Below, one piece after another: positions 2,087-35,070 of a stretch of 64,000 nt of DNA. Under the pieces are notes generated by a model, which was not told the origin of the DNA, made no database searches, and worked only from the letters and a program-made list of their open reading frames with translations. Location: NCBI RefSeq assembly GCF_053078305.1, contig NZ_CP166879.1. The stretch is one strand, 5' to 3'. Both the position numbers and the translations under genes were made by a program. The stretch's first letter is position 1. Every line of letters begins with the position of its first letter.

Positions 2087-2185
2087 GGCTGCTGGTGGTG
2101 GGGGTCGAACCCACATAAACATCCCGCTTTCTGGAAGCTATACAAGCGGACGCCGCTTTACCGATTAAGAGTACACCATACAGCC
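2087..2185 (-). ncRNA. tRNA-like RNA 2 (diverged paralogue of RNA 1 with extended acceptor-like helix)
   Basis: T arm GTGGG-TTCGACC-CCCAC. Terminal helix GGCTG..TGGTG / CACCA..CAGCC. UA plus a GG-containing D-like loop. Long central hairpin TCCGCTT...AAGCGGG. The 5' end coincides with the start predicted from the promoter at 2193-2221. Confidence 0.4.
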
Positions 2186-3916: not shown

Positions 3917-4120
3917 TACTCACCACTACTCACTTTTTTTACTCACTTTTTGGAATCGCTCACTTCGTCTCACCTGAGATTTTTGGTGTTTTTATGTGTG
4001 TGTTTTATAAGTGGTTTTTTACTACTCACTTTTTTGCCTATATACAGGTGAGAAAGTGAGTAATTTTGTTAATTTTTTGTAAAATTACTCACTTTACTCA
4101 CTTTTGCTCCTCACTTTTTT
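3917..4120. repeat. Iteron array, putative island replication origin
   Basis: At least 8 direct copies of (T)ACTCACTTT(T), for example at 3927, 3940, 4023, 4086, 4095 and 4109. Inverted copies (gtgagaaagtgagta) lie at 4048-4062. AT-rich spacers. The array abuts the stop codon of the RepA-like gene. Confidence 0.7.
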
Positions 4121-5516
4121 ACAGCGGTACTACGTCATCGCCGTCAATGCGTATAGTCTCGTCTTTCTCCAGTTTTGCTAACCATCGCCGCATGTTTTTC
4201 ACGTCATACCCAAGCCGTTTCATGTCGTCGCGCAACAACGAAATAGTGCACTTGTCGCCGTGCTGTGTGCGTGACCGGATGCAGCCCCATAGCGCGGTAT
4301 GGTTTTCCGTCTTGTTGCCAGCCTCCTCGATGCGCTCCACTTCAACGGGATGACGCGGCTTATCCACCACAACCAGAGACGTGATTAACTCCCCGTCAGC
4401 GTCGGTAAAAAGCTCAACTACCCGCAAATCGTAGGCAGCTTCTTTGAGTTCCTCTGCGTCCTTCATTTTGGTACATGAGATAACCAGCGCTTCGCTTCCT
4501 GCGTCCTCCCTGCGTATCCGGTATTCAGCATCCAGTGATGCACGAAATGCACTGGAACCACGCGCCCCCTTTGTTTCATCCTTGCCGGAATGGTGAACCA
4601 CCAGCACCGTTGCCCCTGTGCGCCGTTTCAGTTCGTCACACCCACGGATAAACGCCCCCATATCACGGGAATCATTTTCATCATTGCCACCAAAGCAACG
4701 CGCCAGCGTATCCAGAATAATCATGCGTACAGGTTTACCCGTTTCCCGTTCCACCTGGCGGGCAGCGATAACCATTTCATCAACATCAAGCGGGGCAGCC
4801 GGAAAGATGGGGCGGTTTACCAGATACAGATTTTTCACCTGCTCACCGTGCACAACCTCCCAGGCTTTTACACGACGCGGAACGCCGATACCGCCTTCAC
4901 CAACCACATAGAGAACAGCGCCATGCGCCACCCTGCGGCCTCCCCACTGGCGGCCCGTGGAAACGTGACACGCCCACGAACCCGCAAGGAACGATTTATA
5001 GGAACCGCTCGCCCCGTATATGCTGCACAGCGATACCGCCGGAATAATCCCCTTAACCACGTAATCCAGTTGCGTGTCATATCCGGCAGAACCAACGCTC
5101 ATCGGTAGCTTTGTTTTGCGCTGGTGGCCTTTTTCTTCCTGCTTTTCCCCGCGCTCCCGTTCCAGATATTCGCGCCAGTTCTCCCGCTTCTGGCTGTGCA
5201 TCCCATCGGGGTAGTAATTCGCATCCTGTACGCCTGCCGCTGCCAGTTTTTGCGCGATGGCATTAATATTTGATGGTCTGATATGGCTTGCTTTGTACAG
5301 CCGGACGCAATAGCGCCCCTCGTCAATGATTTTCGTGTCTGCCAGTTCTGCCAGTTGCTGCTCCCCAAGCCATACAGGTGGCACATTATCGCCAGCAAGT
5401 CGGCCCTCCTGCTCCTGCCACTGCTTCGCGTGTGCCCAGGCATCACTACCCACAAAAATAATGACCTCGGTCATTTTGTCGTAAGGCTGTTTTTTTAAGT
5501 TCGGTGCGCTTTTCAT
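4119..5516 (-). CDS. RepA-like RecA-fold replicative helicase/initiator (AAA_25-type)
   Basis: 465-aa ORF. Walker A-like GASGSYKS, Walker B MIILD, VLVVHHSGKD motif typical of RSF1010 RepA-like ATPases. Its start overlaps the upstream ORF stop (ATGA). Iterons lie immediately downstream. Confidence 0.7.
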   Translation of the reverse strand: MKSAPNLKKQPYDKMTEVIIFVGSDAWAHAKQWQEQEGRLAGDNVPPVWLGEQQLAELADTKIIDEGRYCVRLYKASHIRPSNINAIAQKLAAAGVQDANYYPDGMHSQKRENWREYLERERGEKQEEKGHQRKTKLPMSVGSAGYDTQLDYVVKGIIPAVSLCSIYGASGSYKSFLAGSWACHVSTGRQWGGRRVAHGAVLYVVGEGGIGVPRRVKAWEVVHGEQVKNLYLVNRPIFPAAPLDVDEMVIAARQVERETGKPVRMIILDTLARCFGGNDENDSRDMGAFIRGCDELKRRTGATVLVVHHSGKDETKGARGSSAFRASLDAEYRIRREDAGSEALVISCTKMKDAEELKEAAYDLRVVELFTDADGELITSLVVVDKPRHPVEVERIEEAGNKTENHTALWGCIRSRTQHGDKCTISLLRDDMKRLGYDVKNMRRWLAKLEKDETIRIDGDDVVPL

Positions 5517-5812
5517 TTCTTACCCCTGAATGCGTTAATCATCTTTTTCATCTTCTGTATTTTTGCCAGTGCCTTTACGTTGCTGGTGGGCACGTTACGC
5601 GGTACCGCCTGCACCAGAGAAAAATCACGGGAAAACTGATAAACAGGCATCACGCAGTCATATTCGTAGCCTTTACGGCGGTAGGTGACGCACCGCCCCG
5701 CCACGCCCTTAATCATTACCGTGCCGCCGTACTGGTCGCGGTAAATATCACCGCGCTTAAATTCAGGGCGAGGCTTGCCGCTGGCAGTTAAGCCAGTTTT
5801 TTTCATGTTCAT
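5513..5812 (-). CDS. Small basic protein, function unknown (possibly DUF4222-like)
   Basis: 99-aa ORF whose stop overlaps the replicase ATG, so it is operonic with the replicase. Confidence 0.5.
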   Translation of the reverse strand: MNMKKTGLTASGKPRPEFKRGDIYRDQYGGTVMIKGVAGRCVTYRRKGYEYDCVMPVYQFSRDFSLVQAVPRNVPTSNVKALAKIQKMKKMINAFRGKK

Positions 5813-5885: not shown

Positions 5886-6200
5886 TCACGAATGGCGATA
5901 ATCAGCACTGATATCTCCGTTACGACAACGCCAGTTGTACACCTCCACAACCTCACTGAATCCGGCCACAAGTTCAGCCGTAACAGCGATGGAATCGCCC
6001 AGGCTGCGCAGTTCGTCCATGTCAGGATCAATGCTGTCACTCATGCCAGAAAGTAAGCGCCCTGTGATAGCCAGCCCTTCAAGCAGTTTGCGGGCGTAGA
6101 AATCAGCATCATCAAACATCGCTCTCGCTTCCCGTGCGTCAGCTGCTTTTATGGTTGTAACCAGTTGTTCAAGTATTCTGGTGTTACACACATCACGCAT
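5886..6200 (-). CDS. Hypothetical acidic protein translationally coupled to icd-like 1
   Basis: 104-aa ORF. Its ATG lies 5 nt before the icd-1 stop (ATGCGTGA, 6200-6193), the same geometry as P1 icd-ant coupling. Confidence 0.5.
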   Translation of the reverse strand: MRDVCNTRILEQLVTTIKAADAREARAMFDDADFYARKLLEGLAITGRLLSGMSDSIDPDMDELRSLGDSIAVTAELVAGFSEVVEVYNWRCRNGDISADYRHS

Positions 6201-6363
6201 GACTCACCCCCTCACGAATAAGGGTGACAAAAATCAGATGGGTGTGCGGAAGTTGTGCGCGTGCTTCGTGCTCAGTGGCAGCGGTAACGGTGAATATTGC
6301 AATGCTGCCTGTCAGGCACTGCATAAAGCGCCAGACAAAGTAAGGGCGTGCGGATACAGCCAT
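6193..6363 (-). CDS. Icd-like (host cell-division-inhibitor-like) small protein, copy 1
   Basis: 56 aa MAVSARPYFVWRFMQC...TVTAATEHEARAQLPHTHLIFV.... AGGAG lies 8 nt upstream of the ATG at 6363. The ORF track shows an in-frame 164-aa extension that I interpret mainly as RNA. Confidence 0.65.
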   Translation of the reverse strand: MAVSARPYFVWRFMQCLTGSIAIFTVTAATEHEARAQLPHTHLIFVTLIREGVSHA

Positions 6364-6371
6364 GTGAAAGG

Positions 6372-6586
6372 CTCCTATGTTTGAGGTAAGGAGTCTCGCT
6401 ACTACGCTGCTAAACATGGTGGCGAGACGTAACAGGGTTAGCAGACTGGCAACATAGAAACCAGCGAGCGCAAAGGCTCCCCCGTTACGCCCCGCCATAA
6501 TGCGGGTATGGGTAGGTTTACGGACACAAAAAAACCGCATATCGGAATGTAAGCGGCTGTCCGCTATGTTATTCAGGCTGCTAAAC
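6372..6586 (-). ncRNA. c4-like antisense RNA cassette 1 (targets, antisense core, SD-overlapping target)
   Basis: Plus-strand text: targets ctatgtt at 6564-6570 and 6375-6381, and ctgctaa at 6578-6584 and 6407-6413. Antisense aacatag at 6451-6457 and ttagcag at 6438-6444. Exact reverse complements. The distal target overlaps the icd-1 SD. Confidence 0.6.
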
Positions 6587-6649
6587 CCGGTCGCCATGTG
6601 GGTGACTCCGGCATCATACAGCCCGAAAGAAGAGGCGATCAACATGTTT

Positions 6650-6820
6650 TTATCCATGTGATGCCTCCTGACGGATACGGGCGACAAAAATCAGATGTGC
6701 GTGCGGCAGCCGGGCGCGTGCTTCGTGCTCAGTGGCAGCGGTAACGGTGAATACATCGATGTTACTGTGGTGGCACTGCATAAAGCGCCAGACAAAGTAA
6801 GGGCGTGCGAATACAGCCAT
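6650..6820 (-). CDS. Icd-like small protein, copy 2
   Basis: 56 aa MAVFARPYFVWRFMQCHHSNIDVFTVTAATEHEARARLPHAHLIFV.... AGGAG lies 8 nt upstream of the ATG at 6820. Confidence 0.65.
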   Translation of the reverse strand: MAVFARPYFVWRFMQCHHSNIDVFTVTAATEHEARARLPHAHLIFVARIRQEASHG

Positions 6821-6828
6821 GTGAAAGG

Positions 6829-7043
6829 CTCCTGTAGTGAAATTAAGGAGTCTCGCTACTACGCTGTCAAACATGGTGGCGAGACGTAACAGGGTTGACA
6901 GACTGGCACTACAGGAACCAGCGAGCGCAAAGGCTCCCCCGTTACGCCCCGCCATAATGCGGGTATGGGTAGGCTTACGGACACAAAAAAACCGCATATC
7001 GGAATGTAAGCGGCTGTCCGCTGTAGTATTCAGGCTGTCAAAC
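6829..7043 (-). ncRNA. c4-like antisense RNA cassette 2
   Basis: Targets ctgtagt at 7021-7027 and 6832-6838, and ctgtcaa at 7035-7041 and 6864-6870. Antisense actacag at 6908-6914 and ttgacag at 6895-6901. The backbone is nearly identical to cassette 1. Confidence 0.6.
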
Positions 7044-7106
7044 CCGGTCGCCATGTGGACGACTCCGGCATCATACAGCCCGAAAGAAGAGGCGATCAAC
7101 ATGTTT

Positions 7107-7295
7107 TTAAGCATGACTCACCCCCTGACGAATACGGGCGGCGAATACAGCGACACAACCGGACGGGCAACGGTTACGCGCTTCGCGTTCCGTCCAGGCG
7201 GTTACGTGGATGATTTGACGTTCTGACGTGCCAAAGGTGATAAAGCGCCAGATAAAGGCGGTTTGAGAATGTACGAGGGCAGGGGTAGTAGCCAT
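7107..7295 (-). CDS. Icd-like small protein, copy 3 (diverged)
   Basis: 62 aa MATTPALVHSQTAFIWRFITFGTSERQIIHVTAWTEREARNRCPSGCVAVFAARIRQGVSHA. AAGGAGG lies 8 nt upstream of the ATG at 7295. Confidence 0.6.
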   Translation of the reverse strand: MATTPALVHSQTAFIWRFITFGTSERQIIHVTAWTEREARNRCPSGCVAVFAARIRQGVSHA

Positions 7296-7303
7296 GATGG
7301 CAG

Positions 7304-7514
7304 CCTCCTTTATCGTTGGGATATACCCACCGCTGGAGGTTCCAATCTCGCTGGCGGTGGACTGCACGGAGTTGGAACTACTGGCGATAAAGGAAACCAG
7401 CCTGACCGAAGTCAGCCCCATACAGCCCACCATTGATAAGGTGTGCGTGTGCGCCGATACAAAAAAAGACGCGTTCGGCGTCTGTATCGCCTTTATCTCC
7501 AGCGGGGTTCCAAT
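7304..7514 (-). ncRNA. c4-like antisense RNA cassette 3 (diverged backbone, same architecture)
   Basis: Targets cctttatc at 7490-7497 and 7307-7314, and gttccaa at 7507-7513 and 7339-7345. Antisense gataaagg at 7386-7393 and ttggaac at 7372-7378. Strong hairpin GACGC-CGAAC-GCGTC plus U7 at 7461-7482. Confidence 0.55.
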
Positions 7515-7825
7515 CCCGACACCCGTTTTATGAGGTGCGCGGGAATCATAGCCATTTTTGATACTGGCGATCAACTGATTTTCTCTGGCGGGTATTTGGC
7601 GCGGATGCCTGTTACCTGTGGCAATATACACACGACTGTATACAATACACATCGGTTAACTCCTTATATTCCGTTGATGGCCCGTAGTGTTATTGCATTG
7701 CGGGTATTTTTTACCTGCCGTTAATTGAATGCGGCAAGGCATCACGACGGTTAACCCGTTTTGCATAACGTGAGGCGTTTTATTTTCTGCGCTGGTGGCT
7801 TTTATATTTCACATATGGGAATTTA

Positions 7826-8029
7826 TTATTCCTGCTGATAACGCTCCTCTACTTTCTTCTCAAGCCATGATTTCACCTCATCCTCAAACCAGCCAACGCG
7901 GCGTAATCCACGCTTAAAACCAGGAATAAATTCACCAGCCTTAACCATTGTGTCAATGCTCGTTGTACTAAGGCGAAGAAGATTTGCGACTTCTCGTTTT
8001 GTAAGGATTTTCTTTTCTGTAATGTTCAT
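7826..8029 (-). CDS. AlpA-family phage/island HTH regulator (excision/transcription control)
   Basis: 67-aa ORF. ...LTKREVANLLRLSTTSIDTMVKAGEFIPGFKRGLRRVGWFEDEVKSWL... matches the AlpA/Phage_AlpA pattern from memory. Confidence 0.8.
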   Translation of the reverse strand: MNITEKKILTKREVANLLRLSTTSIDTMVKAGEFIPGFKRGLRRVGWFEDEVKSWLEKKVEERYQQE

Positions 8030-8166: not shown

Positions 8167-9063
8167 TCAGTCGTCAACGTCTGCAAGCCACTTACCTATG
8201 CATGTTGGTGTGGCACCGATATCAACGCCTGCTTTGGTTAGTGCGCGGCTTAACTTGCTGTGACCGTTTTCAAGCGCCCTTCGTGGGTTTGACGCCTCTT
8301 CTTCTCCGGCTATAGCGGTGATTAGTCTTTTGATAACTCTGGCCTGAAGATTGGTTGTTTTCTTTGATGGGGGTGGTTTATTGATGTTTAATTCATCCAT
8401 GTTTTCAATAGAAGCGGTACGCCCTCCGTTTATGGCTAAATCTATCTCACTTCTGGAAATAAAAATATCGTTACGTGATATATCCCATCCCTGTAATAAA
8501 ATCGCAGCTTTAAAATCATCCTCGTCATCGTTATCGATTATCTGAATGTATTTAGTATTTGTTGTATCGTGAAATGATAATCTTTCAATGTCTGCGCTGT
8601 TAGCCTTTACATTAAGCAATCCATCAGCTTTAACATATATTTCTTTTGCGGGTGTTATTATTTGTGCGTTTTTTATCTCTGGCTCATCTTCAGCAAAAAT
8701 ATTCATGCTGAAATAATCACCATATGATGAGTAATGATAGTTTATGTTGAGTCCTGCATGTGCATAATAAAAAACATCTATTGGAGTGAGTAGCTTATTT
8801 ATAGATGTGGCATCAATGATTACATTGCAATATTCATTTGTGTAATGCTGGTATAATGTTTTATTAGCACTGATAAGCTCAGGCTTTACCCCTTCATAAT
8901 ACTTTAATGTCAGTTTTTCATTTATATTAATGCGATACAAAAAACGCATCCTCCTCGTAGCGATGAAATGAAGCAAATCATCAACGTCACACTCAAGCCT
9001 TCTGGCTGCCTTGTCTAACGGGTAATAATCCCTTTCAGGAAGGTTTATTTTTTTGTTTGCCAT
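8167..9063 (-). CDS. AT-rich orphan protein of unknown function (island cargo)
   Basis: 298-aa ORF starting 4 nt after the integrase stop. Its central part is visibly more AT-rich than neighbouring genes. I recognise no motif. Confidence 0.6.
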   Translation of the reverse strand: MANKKINLPERDYYPLDKAARRLECDVDDLLHFIATRRMRFLYRININEKLTLKYYEGVKPELISANKTLYQHYTNEYCNVIIDATSINKLLTPIDVFYYAHAGLNINYHYSSYGDYFSMNIFAEDEPEIKNAQIITPAKEIYVKADGLLNVKANSADIERLSFHDTTNTKYIQIIDNDDEDDFKAAILLQGWDISRNDIFISRSEIDLAINGGRTASIENMDELNINKPPPSKKTTNLQARVIKRLITAIAGEEEASNPRRALENGHSKLSRALTKAGVDIGATPTCIGKWLADVDD

Positions 9064-9067
9064 GCCC

Positions 9068-10348
9068 TTAACCGTTAACCATTTTTAACCCACGATAGCC
9101 ACCCGTGGCGCTTACGCTCCCGCTGGCAGCTGCCTCTACAAAATCCCCCCACCACGCCATTAACGGGCGTCGCTGCTCGAGATAGGTTGAGCGGTTGTAC
9201 GCACGGCGAACCTCGTTTTTATCTATGTGTGACAATGCCGCCTCGATTACGTCAGAGTCAAAACCTTGCTCGTTAAGTGCGGTACTTGCTATTGAGCGCA
9301 AGCCATGAGCAACCAGCCGCCCACTAAAACCCATGCGTTTTATTGCTGCGTTTGCTGTTTGTACGCACATATGGCGCTGCGGGTCGCTGTTGTGTGGAAA
9401 TATAAACTCACGATGCCCGCTTATTGGCTTCATGACGTCCAGAATGGCTAACGCCTGCTTCGAGAGTGGTATTACGTGTTCCCTGCGTTGTTTAAGTCTG
9501 TGCTCTGGTATGCGCCATTCCTTCACCTCAAAATCAATTTCACACCAGCGCGCGCCAGCTGCTTCACCTGGTCGGCAAATTGTCAGTAGCTGCCACTCAA
9601 TGACCAGCCGCGTTTGTCGTTCCACCCGTGCCGTTGCCAGCTTCTGCATAAATTCGGGGAGTTCTTCAGGGCGTATTGCTGGCATGTTCTTAACGCTTGG
9701 CGCGTTAAATGCCTTGCTTATCTCTGATGCCGGATTCGCGGCAATCATTCCGGTATTAACGGCGTAATACATGACCTCATTGATTCGCTGTGCTGTCCTT
9801 CTGACGGTATCTAATTTCCCCTGGGCGGCTAATGGTTTTAATGCTTCGATGAAATTGCTTGCTATCAGGTCTGCTATTGGCCTGTTACCGACTGACGGGA
9901 ATACATTACGCTCCAGCGAACGCCATATATCGCGTAGTGTATCTTCTGCGAGTCCTTGCCCTTTTTTAAGTTCAAACCAGAGCGTAGCTACATGCCTGAA
10001 GGTGTTCTCTCTCTTCATCACTTCACTAAGGCGCTGTTTCTCTCTGTGCTCTTTTGGGTCAATGCCACCAGAAAGAAGCGCTCTGTATTCGTCTTTTATC
10101 TTTCGCGCGCCCGCAATGCTGATTTCTGGATATGCGCCAATGCTTAACATGGCCCGTTTTTTTGTGTGTGGCTTGTAGTAGCGGTAACGCCACAAGCAAG
10201 AGGCGCTTTTGTGCTTAATCACCAGTTCCAGCCCTTCGCCGTCAGTGATGAAAAGGTCCTTTTTTTCGTTGCTGGCTTTTCGCTGGAGGCTTTTTATCGT
10301 TGCGGGTGATAAAGACTTAACTTTTTTGGTCACCGGTTCAACTCCCAT
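9068..10348 (-). CDS. P4-type tyrosine integrase (DUF4102 N-terminal arm-binding domain plus catalytic domain)
   Basis: 426-aa ORF. Catalytic-type motifs ICRPGEAAGARW, HGLRSIAST and LSHIDKNEVRRAYNRSTY (R...HxxR...H...Y). Lies next to a tRNA gene. Confidence 0.9.
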   Translation of the reverse strand: MGVEPVTKKVKSLSPATIKSLQRKASNEKKDLFITDGEGLELVIKHKSASCLWRYRYYKPHTKKRAMLSIGAYPEISIAGARKIKDEYRALLSGGIDPKEHREKQRLSEVMKRENTFRHVATLWFELKKGQGLAEDTLRDIWRSLERNVFPSVGNRPIADLIASNFIEALKPLAAQGKLDTVRRTAQRINEVMYYAVNTGMIAANPASEISKAFNAPSVKNMPAIRPEELPEFMQKLATARVERQTRLVIEWQLLTICRPGEAAGARWCEIDFEVKEWRIPEHRLKQRREHVIPLSKQALAILDVMKPISGHREFIFPHNSDPQRHMCVQTANAAIKRMGFSGRLVAHGLRSIASTALNEQGFDSDVIEAALSHIDKNEVRRAYNRSTYLEQRRPLMAWWGDFVEAAASGSVSATGGYRGLKMVNG

Positions 10349-22908: not shown

Positions 22909-23063
22909 GTCGGATGCCTGGCGTTGTCCACGATTGCGTAGGCCGAATAAGGCGTTCACGCCGCATCCGGCAATCAACGCCTGATGCGACGCTTGCGCGT
23001 CTTATCAGGCCTACAACTGTCGTTGACGTGTAGCCGGATAAGGCGTTTACGCCGCATCCGGCA
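22909..23063. repeat. BIME (cluster of REP elements)
   Basis: Three REP-like units (ggccgaataaggcgttcacgccgcatccggca, gatgcgacgcttgcgcgtcttatcaggcctac, gccggataaggcgtttacgccgcatccggca). Confidence 0.75.
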
Positions 23064-30886: not shown

Positions 30887-30966
30887 CCGGAAAGCGGTTC
30901 ACAGATCTCGCTTCGTACATGGCAGGCCTATTGACGCTGTTGTTTTTTCAACCTAGAGTAAAGGAA

Positions 30967-31108
30967 CAAGGGTAAGGGAGGATTTCTCCCCCCTCTGATG
31001 AGTTGTTAGTAAGTCGGGAAACTTAACAGTAACAACACAACCAGTATGATGACGAGCTTCATCATAACCCTTTCCTTCTATAAGGCCCCTTCCTCGGGAG
31101 GGGCTTTC
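30967..31108 (+). ncRNA. sibE: Sib antisense antitoxin RNA (ends approximate)
   Basis: Fully overlaps ibs on the opposite strand. GC-rich hairpin ggcccct...aggggc plus T-rich tail near 31084-31108. Confidence 0.55.
31006..31065 (-). CDS. ibsE: Ibs type I toxin, 19 aa MMKLVIILVVLLLLSFPTY
   Basis: Hydrophobic 19-aa ORF below the track cutoff. K-12 order is yqiK-ibsD/sibD-ibsE/sibE-hldE. The D versus E assignment rests on position only. Confidence 0.7.
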   Translation of the reverse strand: MMKLVIILVVLLLLSFPTY

Positions 31109-31341
31109 CCGTTTCAGCCCCTTGCTGACTCCCCGATTGTTGATGAGCGCCGGACCCCGCGCAACGCTTTCCCTGAAGCAGTTTTGCCTTCCCCGAGCGG
31201 TCACGCAAAACGCTGCAACGTCCTGAGCATTTGCACCTTTTAGCGGAACGCAGATATAAAAAATCCCCGGCTTTTTGGGCCAGGGATATGCGTTAATGAA
31301 ACCTTCTTGACGCTGATTTTTTTTCAACCTAAAGTAAAGGA

Positions 31342-31483
31342 ACAAGGGTGAGGGAGGATTTCTCCCCCTCTGATTGGCTGTTAATAAGCTGCGAAACTTA
31401 CGAGTAACAACACAATCAGTATGATGACGAGCTTCATCATAACCCTTTCCTTATACAAGGCCCCTTCTTCGGGAGGGGCTTTC
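31342..31483 (+). ncRNA. sibD: Sib antisense antitoxin RNA (ends approximate)
   Basis: Same architecture as the first copy. Confidence 0.55.
31381..31440 (-). CDS. ibsD: Ibs type I toxin, 19 aa MMKLVIILIVLLLVSFAAY
   Basis: Second copy, 375 bp from the first. Confidence 0.7.
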   Translation of the reverse strand: MMKLVIILIVLLLVSFAAY

Positions 31484-34920: not shown

Positions 34921-35070
34921 GCTTATTCTCAGGGCGGGGCGAAATTCCCCACCGGCGGTAAATCAACTCAGTTGAAAGCCCGCGAGCGCTTTGGGTGCGA
35001 ACTCAAAGGACAGCAGATCCGGTGTAATTCCGGGGCCGACGGTTAGAGTCCGGATGGGAGAGAGTAACGA
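34921..35070 (+). promoter_or_regulatory. FMN riboswitch (RFN element) in the ribB leader
   Basis: gcttattctcagggcggggcgaaattccccaccggcggtaaa...ccggggccgacggttagagtccggatgggagagagtaacga carries the conserved RFN helices and lies upstream of ribB. Confidence 0.9.

Follow-up and report, generated by a model that had tools for sequence, protein, structure and literature searches.

Why would an integrated genetic element carry the same antisense RNA switch three times in a row, with recognition sequences of its own in each copy? In the 64,000-nucleotide window analysed here (contig NZ_CP166879.1, assembly GCF_053078305.1), a satellite-like island of about 8.5 kb, integrated at the ileX tRNA gene of the E. 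coli chromosome, holds such an array between an alpA/vis-type regulator gene and putative replication genes. We refer to its cassettes as unit 3, unit 2 and unit 1 (u3, u2, u1) in the order of transcription on the minus strand, to which all features of the array belong. We consider it probable that the array represents three stacked heteroimmune modules of the P1 c4-icd / P4 seqA-CI-seqC-kil(eta) kind, which would silence the replication operon of a satellite and would be equipped with a translational bypass.

Anatomy and recognition sites of the array

Heteroimmunity by compensatory base changes has a textbook example in the c4/CI antisense switch, which has been studied as single copies, in P1/P7 and in P4/phiR73. 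For the present locus, the initial annotation had proposed three tandem c4-like/icd cassettes with 18 heptamers and octamers as recognition sites. All 18 proved exact in position and sequence in a scripted check, and between 6000 and 7800 each motif is confined to its own positions, except for one additional gataaagg at 7251, inside icd3. The cassettes were borne out as well, since the Rfam C4 covariance model (RF01695, gathering score 45) matches every unit over its full length 1-87 on the minus strand, and three short open reading frames (ORFs) exceed the cut-off of 25 bits of NCBIfam NF033153 (phage_ICD_like). The array is composed of the following features.

7107-7652, minus: eta-like long ORF of unit 3, 181 amino acids, in frame with icd3 (ORF list; Pfam Phage_ASH, 51 bits)
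7545-7574, minus: promoter-like site of unit 3, TTGATC-18-TATGAT (promoter scan)
7462-7538, minus: IsrK/seqA-like leader of unit 3 (Rfam isrK, 63.8 bits; terminator scan; fold)
7350-7437, minus: C4/CI-type antisense RNA of unit 3 (Rfam C4, 77.6 bits; minimum free energy (MFE) -41.5 kcal/mol, z -4.85)
7307-7345, minus: downstream targets of unit 3, a2 (7339-7345) and b2 (7307-7314) (exact complements, fixed offsets, covariation)
7107-7295, minus: icd3, Icd/Kil-like, 62 amino acids (NF033153, 58.9 bits)
6650-7114, minus: eta-like long ORF of unit 2, 154 amino acids (ORF list, open frame, stop avoidance across variants)
7070-7099, minus: promoter-like site of unit 2, TTGATC-18-TATGAT (promoter scan; aligns with P1 P51b)
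6985-7063, minus: leader of unit 2 (isrK 32.3 bits and c4-a1b1 29.3 bits, gathering scores 50 and 46.7; P1/P7 identity; fold)
6872-6959, minus: C4 RNA of unit 2 (Rfam C4, 72.3 bits; MFE -46.0 kcal/mol, z -5.65)
6832-6870, minus: downstream targets of unit 2, a2 (6864-6870) and b2 (6832-6838) (exact complements, offsets, covariation)
6650-6820, minus: icd2, 56 amino acids (NF033153, 54.9 bits)
6193-6657, minus: eta-like long ORF of unit 1, 154 amino acids from the ATG at 6657 (ORF list, open frame, coupling junction)
6613-6642, minus: promoter-like site of unit 1, TTGATC-18-TATGAT (promoter scan)
6528-6606, minus: leader of unit 1 (isrK 33.3 bits and c4-a1b1 26.7 bits, gathering scores 50 and 46.7; fold)
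6415-6502, minus: C4 RNA of unit 1 (Rfam C4, 73.3 bits; MFE -45.9 kcal/mol, z -6.74)
6375-6413, minus: downstream targets of unit 1, a2 (6407-6413) and b2 (6375-6381) (exact complements, offsets, covariation)
6193-6363, minus: icd1, 56 amino acids (NF033153, 44.8 bits)

The sigma-70-like hexamers occur at an equivalent place in all three units, are invariant in the three-unit alignment and align with the annotated P1 promoter P1c4 (formerly P51b, TTGACC-17-TATAGT). Since every unit thus has a promoter-like element of its own, the arrangement of the three specificities on one transcript, which the initial annotation had assumed, is not established. Matches to Rfam isrK (RF01394) start 7 nt past the -10 hexamer in every unit, that of unit 3 being the only one in the array above the gathering score; in units 2 and 1 a permissive Rfam scan returned isrK- and c4-a1b1-like (RF03163) matches below gathering score at the homologous places, and both leaders can be aligned with that of P1, annotated a1 and b1 sites included.

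In P1 nomenclature (annotation NC_005856) a2 denotes the site immediately 3' of c4 and b2 the one over the ribosome-binding site, and the hairpin loop of the antisense RNA is therefore b' and its 3' junction a'. The initial annotation had the sites themselves right, while in its sets the target and loop belonging to the Shine-Dalgarno (SD)-proximal, b-type pairing were put first, the reverse of the a/b order in P1. According to fold prediction, a1 lies in a hairpin loop of the leader, b1 is single-stranded and the leader ends in a U-tract hairpin. The sites read UUGGAAC (a1, 7507-7513) and GAUAAAGG (b1, 7490-7497) in unit 3, UUGACAG (7035-7041) and ACUACAG (7021-7027) in unit 2, and UUAGCAG (6578-6584) and AACAUAG (6564-6570) in unit 1. 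The terminal hairpin of unit 3 is a clean intrinsic terminator (7467-7483, followed by U6), and those of units 2 and 1 are weak, each followed by U7, with a competing hairpin beside b1. The latter, a GCGG-ACAG-CCGC hairpin right after b1 (6985-7030 and 6528-6573, minus strand), recurs in the same arrangement in P1. Binding of C4 at b1 could tip this balance of hairpins towards termination.

All three C4 RNAs adopt the same predicted MFE fold, in which a long closing stem surrounds two hairpins, the first of them small and the second bearing the b' loop; both this loop and the a' junction are unpaired. These segments read CCUUUAUC (b', 7386-7393) and GUUCCAA (a', 7372-7378) in unit 3, CUGUAGU (6908-6914) and CUGUCAA (6895-6901) in unit 2, and CUAUGUU (6451-6457) and CUGCUAA (6438-6444) in unit 1, the a' of unit 2 being identical to that of P1 and D6 and the a' of unit 1 to that of P7 and SJ46. 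A CCA follows just 3' of the closing stem in each of them (GCCACCA, GCCACCA and CCGCCAGC). RNAs of the C4 family have a mature length of about 77 nt and are freed from a longer transcript by RNase P and 3' trimming. Downstream, a2 begins 1-4 nt and b2 32-35 nt past the C4 3' end, with b2 reaching the icd Shine-Dalgarno: it runs into AAGGAGG of icd3, extends to CACUACAGGA over the SD in unit 2 and abuts GGAG in unit 1.

Units 2 (7114-6658) and 1 (6657-6201) are each exactly 457 bp long. Their RNA parts differ at 25 of 294 positions, and 15 of these 25 differences fall into the six heptamers (42 nt; hypergeometric P = 2e-8), in agreement with the earlier observation that the two RNAs are almost identical except for concordantly changed sites; the icd parts differ at 29 of 163 positions. 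Neither chance nor an assembly duplication accounts for these figures, and an assembly artefact was ruled out, since the two units differ at 54 of 457 positions in total.

Comparison with P1 supports the logic of phage P1/P7 immI that had been suggested for the locus. The RNA parts of units 1 and 2 are 76-82% identical to the c4 regions of P1, P7, D6 and SJ46, and they share the P51b-homologous promoter, the order and offsets of the sites and the coupling of icd to the next gene. In P1, however, the module is present as a single copy and icd is followed by ant, whereas here three copies stand in tandem and further cassettes and then replication genes follow; no Ant, KilA-N or Bro domain was found downstream of icd with Pfam and NCBIfam. 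The similarity to P1 begins at P51b and leaves the C1 operator Op51 outside, with no search made for the 17-bp operator itself. Unit 3 is 82-83% identical to a cassette of Stx2a-converting phages such as TL-2011c and P13374.

Covariation, code repertoire and predicted orthogonality

Homologous cassettes were collected from 80 IMG/VR loci gathered via the Icd-like ORF, together with six loci from phages and a number from E. coli. With a covariance model built from the three window copies only, 65 C4 copies were found in the window and loci L001-L086. The same model scored the P4 CI RNA at 54.5 bits, placing it in the same RNA family and upholding the parallel to P4 drawn in the initial annotation. 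In 65 of 65 copies a' has an exact complement of 7-8 nt both at a1, 73-82 nt before C4, and at a2, at fixed offsets. For b', complements at b1 (56-68 nt before C4) and b2 are likewise found at fixed offsets in nearly all copies, mostly over 7-10 exact nucleotides; three Stx-type specificities have an exact b1 stretch of just 5 nt, two (TTTCCTCTAACG and TCACCTTGGACG) show a short b2 match or none, and an off-register b1 match was returned for three copies. In all Stx-type cassettes a2 lies at +4 and b2 at +34 from the C4 3' end.

Across these cassettes the sites co-vary as intermolecular pairs. In the P1-type alignment of 20 distinct cassettes, standard pairs occupy 100% of the cells for a2/b2 and 98.6% for a1/b1, in contrast to 19-50% for slid partners; double-sided changes occur at 8 of 14 pairs, and the observed score was reached by none of 500 shuffles. 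The Stx-type alignment of 21 distinct cassettes shows 98.4% paired cells in both sets and double-sided changes at 11 of 15 pairs, so that for the 41 distinct cassettes overall 98-100% of cells are paired versus 19-52% in slid controls. The C4 stems also vary by compensatory pairs.

The first 65 copies comprise 22 specificities, built from 16 loops and 8 junctions, and four more were found in later loci, giving a repertoire of at least 26 codes that sit on just two near-invariant scaffolds, P1-type and Stx-type. On the P1-type scaffold, nucleotide diversity amounts to 0.306 in the six sites versus 0.042 in the rest of the RNA module. Alleles of a and b are combined differently from cassette to cassette, with just two a' alleles on the P1-type scaffold, CUGUCAA (as in P1/D6) and CUGCUAA (as in P7/SJ46). 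Adjoining this almost invariant RNA module, icd is highly variable, with 39, 38 and 43 of 57 columns variable at the three codon positions, and the recombination or selection regime appears to shift sharply at the icd start codon.

Within the array, summed duplex energies of a'/a2 and b'/b2 amount to -22.8, -24.2 and -17.5 kcal/mol for the cognate combinations and to -5.2 to -11.0 kcal/mol for the six cross pairs among units. The same calculation for the heteroimmune pair P1/P7 yields about -19.4 kcal/mol for cognate and -8.3 and -11.7 kcal/mol for cross combinations. Predicted pairing is thus kept within a unit and broken between units, as had been claimed from the heptamers, at cross energies comparable to P1 versus P7. 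By this yardstick, the three units should be mutually non-cognate and no cross-reaction is expected. The b' loops also differ from those of P1, P7, D6 and SJ46.

The open icd frame and the proposed switch

Each unit forms one long ORF in the icd frame, of 181 amino acids from 7652, 154 from 7114 and 154 from 6657. In unit 3 the 120 codons upstream of the icd ATG contain no in-frame stop, and the ORF has an SD, AAGGAG, 7 nt before its ATG. Of 38 distinct leader-to-icd sequences, 37 keep the icd frame open ahead of the icd ATG for a stretch of between 99 and at least 134 codons; the other two frames contain up to 10 stops, and frame 1 is never stop-free. Polymorphic stop sites are distributed over the frames as 1, 23 and 30 (binomial P ~9e-9). 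The sole cassette of the 38 with an in-frame stop, 82 codons upstream of the icd ATG (L009, 2697-2934), may be a decaying copy.

An open frame could be taken to mean that the proteins of the Ash/Eta family and the long "Icd-like" products are functional and the heptamers incidental. The frame is open through every whole unit, Pfam Phage_ASH matches the unit 3 ORF, and the NCBI Prokaryotic Genome Annotation Pipeline (PGAP) annotates 154-residue Icd-like proteins and an "ash family protein" here. However, variable columns in the leader and C4 part number 35/35/33 and 16/14/16 per codon position, without any third-position excess, and both the stems and the six sites vary by compensatory pairs. 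Codon periodicity, named in the initial annotation as a possible refutation of the RNA reading, is thus absent, with compensatory changes in its place. Since the frame is open and third positions show no excess, the constraint is therefore the avoidance of stops and not a conserved peptide. On covariation and the lack of codon periodicity we rejected a protein-coding reading of the RNA part, which we regard as exceedingly improbable.

PF10554 (Phage_ASH) also scores 82 bits on the 198-residue eta frame of P4, which ends in the cI/kil region. Its match regions (window 7110-7652, minus; locus L087 8171-8764, minus) overlie the C4/CI RNA gene together with the leader and the internal promoter, and much of the conservation that it captures may stem from RNA and promoter constraints instead of a protein domain. 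The same promoter, leader and RNA elements are overlain by the "ash family protein" pseudogenes and the 154-residue "Icd-like" proteins of PGAP. The family Phage_ASH and the long "Icd-like" entries of PGAP should be read with caution in annotation, as they largely cover a promoter, a leader and an RNA gene.

Nearly every icd carries at its 3' end a Shine-Dalgarno of the form CAGGGGGTG or CAGGAGGTG; an ATG overlapping the icd stop by 4-14 nt then opens the long ORF of the next unit or the next gene. In the window, icd3 ends in the SD GGGGGTGAG with an ATG at 7114 overlapping its own stop (ATGCTTAA), which opens the unit 2 ORF; this spans promoter, leader and C4 and ends in icd2. The latter ends in AGGAGG with an ATG at 6657 overlapping its stop (ATGGATAA), and icd1 again in GGGGGTGAG with an ATG at 6200 overlapping its stop (ATGCGTGA), from which a 104-residue ORF starts.

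This arrangement has a close known parallel in P4, where, as summarised in PMC10111431, kil is a short CI-controlled ORF, eta begins upstream of the internal promoter, and translation of eta from a late promoter prevents termination. Premature termination of this kind, dependent on CI and on Rho, belongs to the definition of a P4-type immunity region. In both systems the order is vis/alpA, RNA module, small ORFs and replication genes (vis-cI-epsilon-...-alpha in P4), a long ORF spanning promoter and RNA gene has the short toxic ORF as its terminal part, and there is an 8-nt overlap between its stop and the start of the following gene. In contrast to the three differently coded modules found here, P4 has one module; its upstream sites lie about 145-160 nt before CI instead of about 60-80 nt before C4, the long ORF of unit 3 does not border on alpA and is preceded by an SD of its own, and the replicase is a RepA-like AAA_25 helicase where P4 has the alpha primase. 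A further relative is the IsrK-orf45-anrP region of Salmonella Gifsy-1, with which the array shares, as far as its sequence can tell, the terminated leader, the read-through transcript and the ORF over a C4-like RNA coupled to the next gene (PMC4825925), and the leader of unit 3 passes the Rfam isrK threshold. There, by contrast, a 45-codon ORF over the RNA feeds an antirepressor, no Icd-like ORF is present and the region is single copy. The pair isrK/C4 was earlier equated with seqA/CI of P4 (PMC3632133).

We therefore propose a model based on homology with P1, P4 and Gifsy-1 IsrK. A constitutive promoter would give rise to a leader that carries a1/b1 and ends in a terminator, and read-through transcripts would be processed to a C4 RNA of about 80 nt. 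Its a' and b' segments would pair with a1/b1 and with a2/b2, and since b2 overlaps the icd Shine-Dalgarno, this pairing would stop translation of the Icd/Kil-like ORF. As downstream ORFs begin at an SD and ATG overlapping the preceding icd stop, an untranslated icd would leave the message unprotected and lead to termination. Given a promoter in every unit, each lock would act on its own and on upstream transcripts, and the replication genes would stay off. Since the three eta-like ORFs are chained, translation started upstream, on an induced transcript from the alpA side, could run through all of them and carry transcription through all three locks, as in P4.

A serial multi-lock, an AND gate in which all three locks have to be opened before the replication genes are expressed, had been suggested as a role and would provide an extra-tight off state. 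It would suit three modules lying in series between alpA and the replication genes, each with a terminator-like leader and an SD-occluding site. However, with a P51b-homologous, sigma-70-type promoter in every unit, transcripts from the last promoter face the last lock alone; the chained eta-like ORFs imply that upstream-started translation overrides downstream locks; and near-identical sister islands manage with two cassettes, of which the second slot is freely variable. We consider such a gate very unlikely.

Distribution, origin and island context

By BLAST, the region is matched in 1047 of 5426 complete E. coli genomes, and a 545-nt query across two P1-type C4 genes finds matches in 245. 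Coverage over-counts arrays in this search, as pieces of one cassette are joined across the repeated query, and only the span in the record and a "pieces = 1" criterion are reliable; by these, NZ_CP027440.1 holds the only other P1-type/P1-type tandem. Among 48 loci with at least one C4, arrays are single in 33, double in 13, always Stx-type followed by P1-type, and triple in 2, namely the window and, with other codes, NZ_CP027440.1. Three specificities in series, of which the initial annotation knew no other case, are thus indeed present, but arrays are not unique and a second triple exists. The excerpted text of Mageeney et al. 2023 (PMC10111431) on Gram-negative phage-inducible chromosomal islands (PICIs) does not describe tandem arrays, differing codes or covariation. 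The single cassette, its logic, its occurrence in PICI-like islands and the eta/kil bypass are already known, and for the tandem stacking of differently coded cassettes, the chained eta-like ORFs and the size of the code repertoire we found no description in a literature search that covers subscription journals thinly, so that this absence is weak evidence.

The ileX island is found in Oki strains with the cassettes [u3,u2] (100% and 98% identity), in JNEC-KY203 with u3 and the u1 code and in STEC2018-607 with u3 and a third code, and these sister islands differ only in the cassette slot. The make-up of the window array, [u3,u2,u1], suggests that it came about by unequal crossover between such two-cassette alleles. 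Within our model, the cassette slot would be a recombination hotspot at which unequal crossover between alleles stacks cassettes, the extra, differently coded C4 RNAs would extend the range of competing satellites repressed in trans, and extra codes might also widen the set of RNAs able to de-repress the island; these are its least certain parts. We infer that the advantage of stacking may lie in a broader trans immunity against rival satellites, which fits the sharing of codes and their hypervariability.

The same data could also describe a selfish or neutral pile-up, in which addiction units in the style of type-I toxin-antitoxin systems, with Icd/Kil as toxin and C4 as antidote, accumulated as the 457-bp repeats crossed over unequally, without any function of the array itself. 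The exact 457-bp length of units 2 and 1 would suit this, the array resembles the union of the alleles [u3,u2] and [u3,u1], triple arrays are rare, and IsrK-like elements of P4-like prophages were required in transposon screens, as expected of an antidote (PMC3632133). Left unexplained by a pile-up are the hypervariability of codes on near-invariant scaffolds and the conserved coupling junction and open eta frame of the internal units, although both would be compatible with it if selection acted on single cassettes only. Overall we find this explanation rather doubtful.

Exact matches to the three window codes occur in 4, 10 and 6 of the 5426 genomes, each at most 0.2%. An exact scan of IMG/VR found them in 0, 2 and 0 contigs, and they are absent from 50,697 INPHARED phage records and 72,556 PLSDB plasmid records, hence no link of this array to a known phage emerges and the earlier suggestion that it senses or excludes known c4-type phages is without direct support for this array. 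A scan of GTDB contigs with the Icd alignment returned one locus (Shigella), with patterns too specific, so that the view given here is of Escherichia/Shigella. Unrelated islands, inserted beside cspD/yljB or at other sites and equipped with other integrases and with DUF927 or other primases, also carry the u2 and u1 codes, and in one genome checked two co-resident islands carry four different codes. In cspD/yljB islands with the u1 code, a ProQ/FinO-family RNA chaperone is encoded near the gene of the single-stranded DNA-binding protein (SSB; L100 9429-9845 and L101 9438-9854), which is suggestive in view of RNA-based control.

Foreign codes bear on a further possibility, a multi-key sensor or OR gate, in which an RNA from an invading phage or satellite, bearing a/b sites as IsrK does, would titrate one resident C4 and switch on replication, more cassettes meaning more inducers. 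A precedent is the IsrK leader RNA of Gifsy-1, which activates downstream ORFs in trans (PMC4825925). Some island cassettes share their exact code with an Stx2a phage, and coupling of the eta-like ORFs would let any one opened lock drive the whole operon. On the other hand, the window codes are missing from the phage and plasmid records, two of the three also from IMG/VR, and any element that matches a code would also come with a C4 repressor of its own, which makes the net effect ambiguous. A sensor of this kind is therefore unlikely in our view.

The code shared with an Stx2a phage (loop TTCCCTTGATTG, junction AGTCCTAA) occurs in identical form in phage Stx2_EC3283 and on two satellite-like IMG/VR contigs; given this identity, phage and satellite should cross-regulate at the RNA level. 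The copies are located as follows.

L093, 2116-2203: C4 copy of the Stx2a phage Stx2_EC3283
L008, 2583-2670: C4 copy with the same code, IMG/VR contig
L032, 2859-2946: C4 copy with the same code, IMG/VR contig

Several points weigh against stacked heteroimmune modules with a translational bypass, the reading that we prefer. All functional steps (transcription, processing and repression) are drawn from homology. A late promoter upstream was not detected by the sigma-70 scan, and the eta-like ORF of unit 3 is separated from alpA by a gap of 173 nt and uncoupled, unlike what is reported for P4. The weak terminal hairpins predicted for the leaders of units 1 and 2 and their isrK and c4-a1b1 scores below gathering score belong here as well. 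Only two triple arrays were seen, so recombination could have left the third cassette behind as a neutral side effect. Both triple arrays combine different a' alleles, which with two such alleles on the scaffold is not statistically meaningful.

The minus-strand gene order of the locus is rpoD, mug, the tRNA gene with anticodon CAT (ileX), integrase, a 298-residue ORF, AlpA, the array, a 104-residue ORF, DUF4222 and helicase. The genes flanking the array are the following.

9068-10348, minus: P4-type integrase (family profile match)
8167-9063, minus: 298-residue ORF between integrase and alpA, without Pfam or NCBIfam match; kept in sister islands as "hypothetical protein"
7826-8029, minus: alpA/vis-type regulator upstream of the array (Pfam Phage_AlpA 23 bits, cut-off 21; HTH_17)
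5886-6200, minus: 104-residue ORF downstream of the array (ORF list)
5513-5812, minus: DUF4222 protein (Pfam; PGAP annotation of sister island L001)
4119-5516, minus: RepA-like AAA_25 helicase (Pfam; PGAP annotation of sister island L001)

The position of alpA relative to the array corresponds to that of orf88/vis relative to the cI region of P4, and the three genes between 4119 and 6200 are predicted to be under array control. In strain OkiPb01678 the sister island continues with SSB, PerC-family and Mor-family genes, with no others annotated there; its annotation contains none of the capsid-size and helper-manipulation genes of a strict P4-like satellite (psu, delta, sid, epsilon, alpha). 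The island conforms to the wider PICI-like layout of integration, immunity ("Bro") and replication; Gram-negative PICIs are described with an integrase, AlpA, a Bro/immunity zone and a replication zone, and Rfam C4 and isrK detect the relatives of CI and seqA in them (Mageeney et al. 2023, PMC10111431). In many islands (L072 2150-2900; L044-L086 generally) the first ORF of the replication operon is Icd-like without C4 or isrK upstream and with a divergent small gene instead, as if a protein repressor encoded by this gene took the place of the RNA lock at the first position.

At the search sensitivity used, the two ends of the island, that at ileX and the far one, showed no direct repeats of an attachment site (att), and the island boundary is therefore approximate. 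Two tRNA-like sequences lie at the far end (1985-2066 and ~2090-2184, minus strand), the first with 35 bits to Rfam tRNA and neither called by ARAGORN; the homologous sequences of sister genomes carry the PGAP annotations tRNA-Tyr (82 nt) and tRNA-OTHER (95 nt). Both may be tRNA-like genes carried by the island, or else remnants related to att. Elsewhere in the window, two SIB antitoxin RNAs (30931-31080 and 31307-31455, plus strand), an FMN riboswitch (34921-35069, plus strand) and a naRNA4/REP-type element (22941-23011, plus strand) score above their Rfam gathering scores and belong to the ordinary E. coli core.

In E. coli islands, one type of scaffold thus carries dozens of codes, with a and b parts reshuffled, exchanged between unrelated satellites and stacked two or three deep, with a probable translational bypass built in. 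The cassettes provide a natural set of RNA repressor/target pairs of computed orthogonality that is useful for synthetic biology, and they lead to a concrete, testable hypothesis on competition among phage satellites. We tentatively suggest, as a possibility that we would not yet favour over its negation, an RNA-level heteroimmunity arms race among E. coli satellites, in which stacked, hypervariable two-part barcodes would repress several rival lineages in trans and the chain of eta-like ORFs would exempt the island's own induced expression from every one of its locks. If this were true, cassette arrays would constitute a modular, expandable exclusion system, comparable to stacked bacteriocin immunity genes but written in 7+7 nt of RNA.

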